Virus record (IMG/VR): IMGVR_UViG_2529293142_000001
Span: 1-9,373 of that record
Strand: one strand, 5' to 3'
Source of the DNA: a virus
Taxonomy: Monodnaviria > Loebvirae > Hofneiviricota > Faserviricetes > Tubulavirales
DNA: 9,373 bases
The notes beneath the pieces are model-generated. The model saw only the letters and a program-made list of their open reading frames with translations, was not told the origin of the DNA and did not search any database. Both the position numbers and the translations under genes were made by a program. Within the stretch, counting starts at the first letter, position 1. Every line of letters begins with the position of its first letter. Positions 2,274 to 2,383 of the stretch are shown here, in pieces.

Positions 2274-2383
2274 GTTATACCGTGCGTAAGTGCCTTATGT
2301 CTGTTCCGTTCTCTTCCGCTTCCTCGCCCACTCGCTCACTACGTTCGGTCGCCGGGTCTGCGGCGAGCGGTGGCGGCTCTCTC
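2274..2383. other. GC-rich structured spacer between gene I stop and gene IV start; candidate complementary-strand origin (ssi/primosome-assembly-like) or gene IV regulatory region
   Basis: 110-bp non-coding gap where Ff phages have almost none. Roughly 8-nt periodic GC-rich text CTCTTCCG CTTCCTCG CCCACTCG.... Perfect 6-bp GC stem TCGCCG (2349..2354) / CGGCGA (2361..2366) with loop GGTCTG. From memory, about 80% identical over about 72 nt to the segment just upstream of the pMB1/ColE1 origin (CTCTTCCGCTTCCTCGCTCACTGACTCGCTGCGCTCGGTCGTTCGGCTGCGGCGAGCGGTATCAGCTCACTC). Confidence 0.35.

Follow-up and report, generated by a model that had tools for sequence, protein, structure and literature searches.

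The window analyzed here, that is, the whole stretch of 9,373 nucleotides, is one filamentous (inovirus-type) Escherichia coli prophage of ~9.3 kb, and the long open reading frames (ORFs) in the ORF listing are all located on the minus strand. E. coli chromosomes match the whole window as an insertion of ~9.3 kb flanked by ybiB and hcxB, with 95% identity to NZ_CP027550 and about 88% identity to a dozen other E. coli chromosomes, and the RefSeq annotation of the matching chromosomes comprises a replication endonuclease, small hypothetical proteins, Zot, secretin, and a DUF2726 protein. Pfam assignments on the minus strand of the window included the gene I homologue with its Zot domain (2384-3595; PF05707), the gene IV homologue, a secretin (1044-2273; PF00263), a gene III-like coat protein (3972-5438), and an IS110-family transposase (8527-9357). 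Isolated inoviruses gave no megablast match to the whole window; the sole match among isolated phages, 91 nt in a 1.9-kb record, was set aside, as this record resembles a plasmid fragment.

The prophage Rep belongs to the P2 gpA family, with a Phage_GPA domain found in relatives. The rep gene of the window (6528-8530, minus strand) is split into several ORFs and contains nine single-base indels when compared with the mutually concordant, intact 2004-nt genes of two relatives, L001 and L002. This region is either a decaying pseudogene or a region with sequencing errors. Phage genes other than rep are intact in the window.

Close relatives differ in their integration modules, as seen in a comparison of the window with L001, L002, L004, L008, L018, L035, L036, and L037-L039. 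The window, L001, and L002 are inserted between ybiB and hcxB and carry an IS110-family transposase (described as 'RNA-guided' in some RefSeq records), together with an AT-rich (~30% GC) DUF2726 cargo segment (8527-9357 and 1-1043 of the window). In other relatives, one of which is L008 (Zot 98% identical), dif-like GTGCGCATAATGT marks the boundaries, a pattern that suggests XerCD-type integration. No dif-like site was found in the window, and an IS110 bridge-RNA region, if any, would lie just past its right end. As another side observation, the GC content rises to as much as 68% at 4400-4800, inside the gene III-like ORF, with ~35-40% on either side. The gene III-like protein is 93% identical to that of L001 at the N-terminus and ~42% identical at the C-terminus, which suggests modular exchange of receptor-binding domains.

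The feature under study is the non-coding spacer of 110 bp that extends from the stop of gene I, its upstream neighbor in gene sense, to the first ATG of gene IV, its downstream neighbor (2274-2383). The corresponding RefSeq gap in the 95% identical prophage is 119 bp, because a later ATG was chosen there. The GC content is 62% for the spacer and 70% for the core of the element described below, so that the GC-rich spacer of 110 bp described in an earlier sequence-only reading was recovered exactly. That reading had also held that Ff phages have essentially no spacer at this place, and indeed genes I and IV overlap or sit 2 nt apart in M13, IKe, and I2-2; the same arrangement was found in distant prophage relatives with Ff-type or Rep_trans Rep. 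Because none of these phages has such a gap, the spacer is unusual for the filamentous phage family. A scan of both strands of the spacer detected no promoter-like or terminator-like sites, nor was any promoter-like site detected in 1900-2800. An intrinsic terminator was considered for the spacer hairpin and rejected: there is no T-run, and AAGAGAACGGAAC comes 3' of the hairpin. No Rfam family was matched in the window, L004, or L017.

The spacer is not the only intergenic region of the window; the sequence-only reading had noted no obvious Ff-style one elsewhere. A second non-coding stretch, at about 655-1043, is located downstream of gene IV and contains a hairpin (961-995, minus strand) with 15-nt arms, AAGGTCGCCTTAGGA and TCCTGTCGCGACCTT, followed by AT-rich sequence, at 50-85 nt past the secretin stop. 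This hairpin is kept only in the closest IS110-type relatives (partly in L002) and is missing from those of the dif type. A role as a terminator or in packaging is conceivable for it.

Homology to Plasmid Primosome Assembly Sites

The spacer contains a 77-nt homologue of the ColE1-type primosome assembly site (ssiA, also called n'-pas; 2305-2381, minus strand), the coordinates being the full span of the match to a covariance model, R1, whose construction is described in the next section. R1 gave a single match in the window, with a score of 84.2 bits (E 1e-24), and nhmmer supported the element with an E value of 1.9e-20. A BLASTN search of PLSDB with 2260-2400 matched at least 5000 plasmid records; among the matches listed, the best E value was 2e-29, obtained with small plasmids, and the plasmids were mostly mobilizable ones of Escherichia, Salmonella, and Klebsiella. 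ColE1 (NC_001371) matched the spacer at 1308-1367 on the opposite strand, with 82% identity over 61 nt (E 6e-11), and its element spans 1298-1373 with an R1 score of 84 bits. The pMB1-type origin is 75.6% identical to the phage element over the full 76 nt. These highly significant alignments agree with the likeness to a pMB1/pBR322 segment that the sequence-only reading had pointed out. Among the matches listed, however, the closest relatives of the phage copy were not pBR322 but sites carried by 1.6-kb plasmids of the Col(MG828) type, with 91% identity (the L023 copy, 77 nt). When 50,697 phage records were searched with the element by distant BLAST, only vector- or plasmid-like records matched.

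The sequence shared with ColE1 consists only of this segment of ~60-76 nt, and the rest of the ColE1 origin, including RNA II and the dnaA box, is absent from the phage. In ColE1, the RNA/DNA switch TATGGAAAAACGCC is located at 1188 and the dnaA box at 1271-1279, and the element follows at a distance of 110-170 nt from the switch and 29 nt from the dnaA box, on the strand with the sense of RNA II. The plasmid segment had earlier been placed just upstream of the origin, which is true only on the conventional plasmid map; in the direction of replication, it is downstream of the origin and beyond the dnaA box. By its position, we provisionally take the core shared by the phage and ColE1 (ColE1 1298-1373) to be the mapped factor Y site of pBR322/ColE1. 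The position and strand of the ColE1 match fit the published description of n'-pas/ssiA, which is exposed by Pol I extension, recruits PriA, and has a dnaA box close by (PMC3167613, PMC3640518). As judged from these alignments, the phage element clearly belongs to the ColE1/pMB1 ssiA (n'-pas) sequence family.

The orientation of the element, which the sequence-only reading had left to be checked, is the one that such a site calls for. The minus strand of the window, i.e., the strand in gene sense, corresponds to the RNA II-sense, displaced strand of ColE1, on which ssiA/n'-pas is exposed. The hexamer AAGCGG was found on the strand in gene sense not only in the window but also in all the phage relatives that were inspected. 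The coding strand of the window is T-rich (29.4% T vs 21.8% A). Since Inoviridae genomes are packaged as single-stranded DNA (ssDNA) of positive sense (PMC8491893), the element is expected to lie on the strand that is packaged and enters the cell as ssDNA, the packaged strand being taken from this rule for Inoviridae.

Structure and Covariation of the Element

The element can be divided into three stems, all described on the minus strand. The outer stem, S1, is formed by a 5' arm at 2362-2370 (CCGCT..CC) and a 3' arm at 2316-2323 (GG.AGCGG); the latter holds the invariant hexamer AAGCGG at 2316-2321. A conserved 5'-AAGCGG-3' on the active strand is, we presume, a feature of factor Y sites. The middle stem, S2, consists of a 5' arm at 2353-2358 (G-A-CCCG, with the A bulged) and a 3' arm at 2326-2330 (TGGGC), and the apical hairpin, S3, occupies 2335-2347 (CGAAC-GTA-GTGAG), with five positions and a tandem G.A/A.G in the middle of the stem. 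The block GAGGAAGCGG was invariant in 21 of the 21 seed sequences, and CGCTCGCCGCAG and GAGGAAGCGG are invariant in phage copies and plasmids alike. About 25 nt 3' of AAGCGG, a further motif, CTTACGC (2284-2290, minus strand), is conserved beside the element in the alignments of phage copies, ColE1, and Col(MG828) plasmids, and it may be a functional component of the site or a preferred priming region.

Thermodynamic considerations gave little indication of structure. As a plain inverted repeat, the hairpin is of modest size (two arms of 9 nt, at 2346-2354 and 2361-2369), and the folding energy of the 110-nt spacer was not better than that of shuffled sequences on either strand (z about -1). 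The evidence for a structure therefore comes from covariation. A total of 30 distinct copies of the element were collected from phage relatives and plasmids, of which 21 were aligned with MAFFT. RNAalifold then yielded a long imperfect hairpin, which was refined to the three stems: S1 with CCGCT/AGCGG plus CC/GG, S2 with a variable 5-6 bp, and S3 with a 5-position apical stem. On the MAFFT alignment, 79% of the cells were paired, compared with 29-40% with slid partners; both sides were changed in seven pairs, and the covariation score was reached by none of 500 shuffles. The covariance model R1 was built, and the 35 matches aligned to it gave a similar picture, with nine pairs changed on both sides. 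Across both alignments, 79-82% of the cells were paired versus 28-44% for slid partners, a contrast that is somewhat inflated because the structure was derived from the same sequences that were scored.

Compensatory changes were found in all three stems. The S1 cells are 99% paired, with changes of C-G to G-C and of T-A to C-G in L040 and L043. In the divergent long forms described below, CCGCT/AGCGG becomes GCGCC/GGCGC or GCGCT/AGCGC, so that the hexamer reads AAGCGC or AGGCGC with a compensating partner arm. S2 was swapped as a block (GTTTAT / ATAAAC) in L008, L028, and L035. All 11 differences between the L008 element and that of the window consist of the change of ACCCGG...GTGGG to GTTTAT...ATAAA, in which the S2 arms compensate each other, and the two prophages are 97-98% identical in both flanking genes. 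In S3, the tandem G.A/A.G is replaced by G-C/G-C in a Salmonella plasmid-borne copy (L043), and the pair 39-46 is A-T in 11 sequences and G-C in 10. The count of G.T versus A.C cells in the stems, 5 vs 13, did not favor the proposed strand; this count is probably unhelpful because the register of S2 shifts between sequences. Taken together, the covariation supports a three-stem hairpin. The hairpin of the sequence-only reading was hence retained with regard to pairing, and the hairpin is kept with compensatory changes in related prophages; folding energy and the simple inverted repeat did not lend it support.

Distribution among Related Phages and Plasmids

The element is located in the Zot-secretin spacer, on the coding strand, in L001, L002, L008, L018, L035, L045, L017/L019, and L004/L009/L014. 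The Zot identity among these carriers ranges widely, with values such as 98% in L008, 77% in L035, 51% in L045, and 49% in L017/L019. Three tandem copies are present in L017/L019, and two or three in L004/L009/L014. R1 also detected divergent 92-nt versions on the coding strand of gene I-gene IV spacers, at 7358-7449 in L040/L041 (Zot identity 53%) and at 7385-7476 in L043/L044 of Salmonella (39%). Every phage with the element in the Zot-secretin spacer has a Rep of the Phage_GPA type, and the place and strand of the element are constant in all relatives with P2 gpA-type Rep, down to 39% Zot identity. In most relatives, the element precedes the start of gene IV by about 30 nt, and a TraX-like gene intervenes between Zot and the element in L017. 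Two other searches contributed little to this set: a profile search of genome contigs with the Zot alignment found no relatives, and a search of viral contigs with Zot found only close relatives, many of which end at the Zot stop.

A comparison of the window with L002 revealed differences at about 2 of 57 positions in the core and at about 13 of 19 in the spacer flank, the neighboring genes differing by 12-13%. The core is thus constrained, with the spacer flanks free to diverge. In addition, the similarity of the element core between distant phages far exceeds the similarity of their genes. The high core identity of distant phages could come partly from exchange with co-resident plasmids and not from selection in the phage. 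The copy in the window may be inactive in view of the indels in rep, and it is identical to the copy in a relative with intact Rep.

One carrier departs from this arrangement. L036, a prophage of Enterobacter roggenkampii, has an Ff-type Rep (Phage_CRI/G2P_X_C) and overlapping genes I and IV, and its element is located at 8395-8470 on the gene strand, 83 nt past the gene IV stop. The prophage is flanked by dif-like GGTGCGCATAATGT in direct repeat, at 605 and at 9105, so that the element falls within it. L036 represents an independent placement of the element on the same strand. R1 detected no element in L037-L039 and L042 (E. coli and Edwardsiella, with Ff-type or Rep_trans Rep), nor did it match M13, IKe, or I2-2.

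The tandem copies form arrays with a period of about 340 bp, located at 8043-8797 in L004, 1235-1659 in L009 and L014, 2008-2759 in L017, and 1696-2457 in L019. Between the copies lies a 280-nt unit, without an obvious ORF, which is over 90% identical across phages with ~50% Zot identity. A plasmid origin of this unit was considered and rejected, as only two plasmids match it and both are prophage carriers.

Further copies were observed outside this setting. A long subtype of the element (85-92 nt) occurs in L006 (4247-4331), L012, L016 (10237-10321), L040 (7358-7449), and L043 (7385-7476), with conserved internal-loop motifs TTAGCGA and GAGTCTG. It is common to the gene I-gene IV spacers of distant inoviruses and to P2-like prophages such as L016, which encodes a gpA of 839 amino acids and a portal gene, and both groups have a gpA-type rolling-circle Rep. 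A plasmid-like region in L021 (23-5282) and L013 (2713-5991) contains three RepL genes, a Rep3 gene, and ParM, and a separate copy of the element goes with every rep gene there, lying on the other strand. In Salmonella L043/L044, a canonical short copy is located at 11492-11568 beside a Rep3-type plasmid replication gene; this prophage appears to be plasmid-borne, with both subtypes of the element on one contig. Finally, a 54.7-kb plasmid (H12) has 22 matches, and its mobilization genes are duplicated.

Proposed Function of the Element

The homology to the plasmid site, the strand, the covarying structure, and the constancy of location and strand throughout the clade of phages are all observed features of the element. 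We consider it probable that the element is a ColE1-type primosome assembly site that serves as a PriA-dependent origin of the complementary (minus) strand. Recognition by PriA and use as an origin, which we infer from the sequence comparisons, would proceed as follows. [quoted passage not shown] PriB and DnaT (and PriC) would then join, DnaC would load DnaB, DnaG would synthesize primers, and Pol III would turn the single strand into the replicative form (RF). The single-strand (SS)-to-RF conversion of phiX174 and the lagging-strand start of ColE1 follow the same PriA route, unlike the conversion in Ff phages.

The element lies on the coding strand, so the mRNA carries the same hairpin, and covariation alone cannot separate a role in DNA from a role in RNA. 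The hairpin might accordingly act in the polycistronic gene I-gene IV mRNA, for instance by stabilizing it, by marking where it is processed, or by modulating how gene IV is translated, the likeness to the plasmid site being incidental to its role in the phage. Its presence in the transcript, in most relatives at some 30 nt ahead of the start of gene IV, and a covariation pattern equally compatible with an RNA hairpin would suit such a role. We regard it as improbable, however, because the spacer has no T-run and no terminator-like or promoter-like site, no Rfam family was matched in the window, L004, or L017, and the gene context varies, the element following gene IV in L036 and being separated from Zot by the TraX-like gene in L017. 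Moreover, the invariant CGCTCGCCGCAG and GAGGAAGCGG are shared with plasmids, where their known role is in ssDNA, and the copies in the multireplicon region of L021 are antisense to the adjacent RepL and Rep3 genes, which makes a shared role within mRNA unlikely.

Another explanation, to which we give little credence, is that the element is a passive fragment, captured from a plasmid by recombination in an ancestor and functionless, or kept plasmid-like through gene conversion. Small plasmids of the Col(MG828) type are indeed the best matches among those listed (91%), distant phages resemble one another far more in the core than in their genes, as recent exchange would give, and the prophage in the window looks partly decayed. 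Against these points, only the functional core is shared, the flanking plasmid DNA being absent; the spacer flanks diverge freely and the core does not; neither location nor strand changes among phages whose Zot identity falls from 98% to 39%; and L036 has an independent placement on the same strand. The divergent 92-nt versions, which are not close to the plasmid copies compared, also keep their stems by compensation. It is similarly doubtful that the element is a real PriA site with another purpose, i.e., loading of DnaB when the double-stranded RF or the integrated prophage region is replicated, or the resolution or limiting of multimers as reported for pHW126-type plasmids, with SS-to-RF conversion starting elsewhere, e.g., at the hairpin 961-995. 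Such a purpose is in keeping with pIGRK and pIGMS31, in which ssi is dispensable and its loss leads to multimerization and instability (PMC6854812; bioRxiv 10.1101/2022.12.05.519187), and with the second non-coding region after gene IV and its hairpin with 15-bp arms. That hairpin, however, is limited to the closest IS110-type relatives and absent from the dif-type ones, whereas none of the relatives with gpA-type Rep lacks the element; in a rolling-circle phage, each plus strand has to be converted, and the comparison turned up no further conserved candidate. A PriA-dependent minus-strand origin hence remains our preferred reading of the element, in agreement with the sequence-only reading, whose two refuting conditions (an insignificant alignment to the plasmid segment, or a hairpin not kept in related prophages) did not arise.

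The plasmid site with which the element shares its homologous core (82% over 61 nt) is the ssiA of ColE1/pMB1 (pBR322), also known as n'-pas, rriA, or the L-strand factor Y effector site. The invariant CGCTCGCCGCAG and GAGGAAGCGG blocks and the three-stem hairpin are the same in both, and the orientation of the active strand with respect to the strand exposed as ssDNA agrees as well. In ColE1, ssiA belongs to an RNA II-primed theta origin with an adjoining dnaA box and acts in the lagging-strand start on the D-loop. The phage, unlike ColE1, has no RNA II, dnaA box, or other origin sequence, and the host replicon is a rolling-circle ssDNA phage. The closest sequence relatives among the matches listed, the Col(MG828)-type sites, are likewise parts of plasmid replicons and not of viruses. 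ssi-like palindromes act in lagging-strand initiation in both theta and rolling-circle enterobacterial plasmids, and the pHW126-like plasmids pIGRK and pIGMS31, which carry such a palindrome on the displaced single strand, can be likened to the phage by role (PMC6854812; bioRxiv 10.1101/2022.12.05.519187).

The phiX174 n' site resembles the phage element in function only, with neither sequence nor model similarity detected; the F-G region of phiX174 (2285-2394) scored at most 7.5 bits with R1 (6-7.5), and this phage belongs to the family Microviridae. The SS-to-RF conversion of phiX174 depends on the PriA primosome, with the n' site forming a hairpin in the short F-G intergenic spacer on the packaged strand. 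To our knowledge, phiX174 is the only classical ssDNA phage that uses the PriA-dependent primosome for its complementary strand. The Ff minus-strand origin is a promoter-mimicking pair of hairpins in the large intergenic region, at which the primer is made by host RNA polymerase. The minus origins of Ff (M13/f1/fd) and IKe do the same job as that proposed for the element, namely, to start the complementary strand on the packaged plus strand, and the L036 element occupies the same map position as these origins, in the intergenic region after gene IV (IKe annotation). An Ff-type, RNA polymerase-primed origin was considered for the spacer and rejected, as there is no promoter-like site and no megablast match to isolated inoviruses. 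M13/f1 vectors with a deleted minus origin and a cloned ssi have reportedly been constructed (M13 delta-E101; Nomura and Ray; Masai and Arai). The complementary strand of such laboratory vectors depends on the plasmid ssi in one orientation; that arrangement is artificial, whereas in the phages it is natural, conserved, and diversified across a prophage clade. Literature searches turned up no earlier description of such a site in filamentous phages occurring in nature. The element belongs to a well-known family (ColE1-type ssiA/n'-pas), and what appears new is the kind of replicon that carries it.

Biological Implications

Complementary-strand initiation in ssDNA phages is carried out by RNA polymerase in Ff, by primase alone in G4, and by the PriA primosome in phiX174. 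As far as we know, it is understood in few ssDNA phages and is essentially uncharacterized for many filamentous prophages of pathogens. We lean slightly toward the broader reading that an enterobacterial clade of filamentous phages, comprising those with gpA-type Rep and at least one Ff-type lineage, replaced the Ff minus origin by a portable PriA cassette. According to the same reading, the cassette was exchanged among ColE1-like plasmids, other small plasmids, multireplicon plasmids, P2-like prophages, and inoviruses, with its middle stem swapped as a block and with two to three tandem copies in some phages. If this is true, PriA priming is a common, horizontally traded solution for enterobacterial replicons with a single-stranded stage, and these phages are priA-dependent, unlike Ff phages.

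A PriA site would explain the odd spacer in an otherwise tightly packed genome, and the predicted host dependency would comprise priA, priB, and dnaT. The covarying natural variants may serve as a resource for defining PriA recognition in such sites. A natural, conserved PriA site in inoviruses would bring a second phage family to the PriA route, and would mark the priming signal as a portable module common to plasmids, P2-like phages, and filamentous phages.
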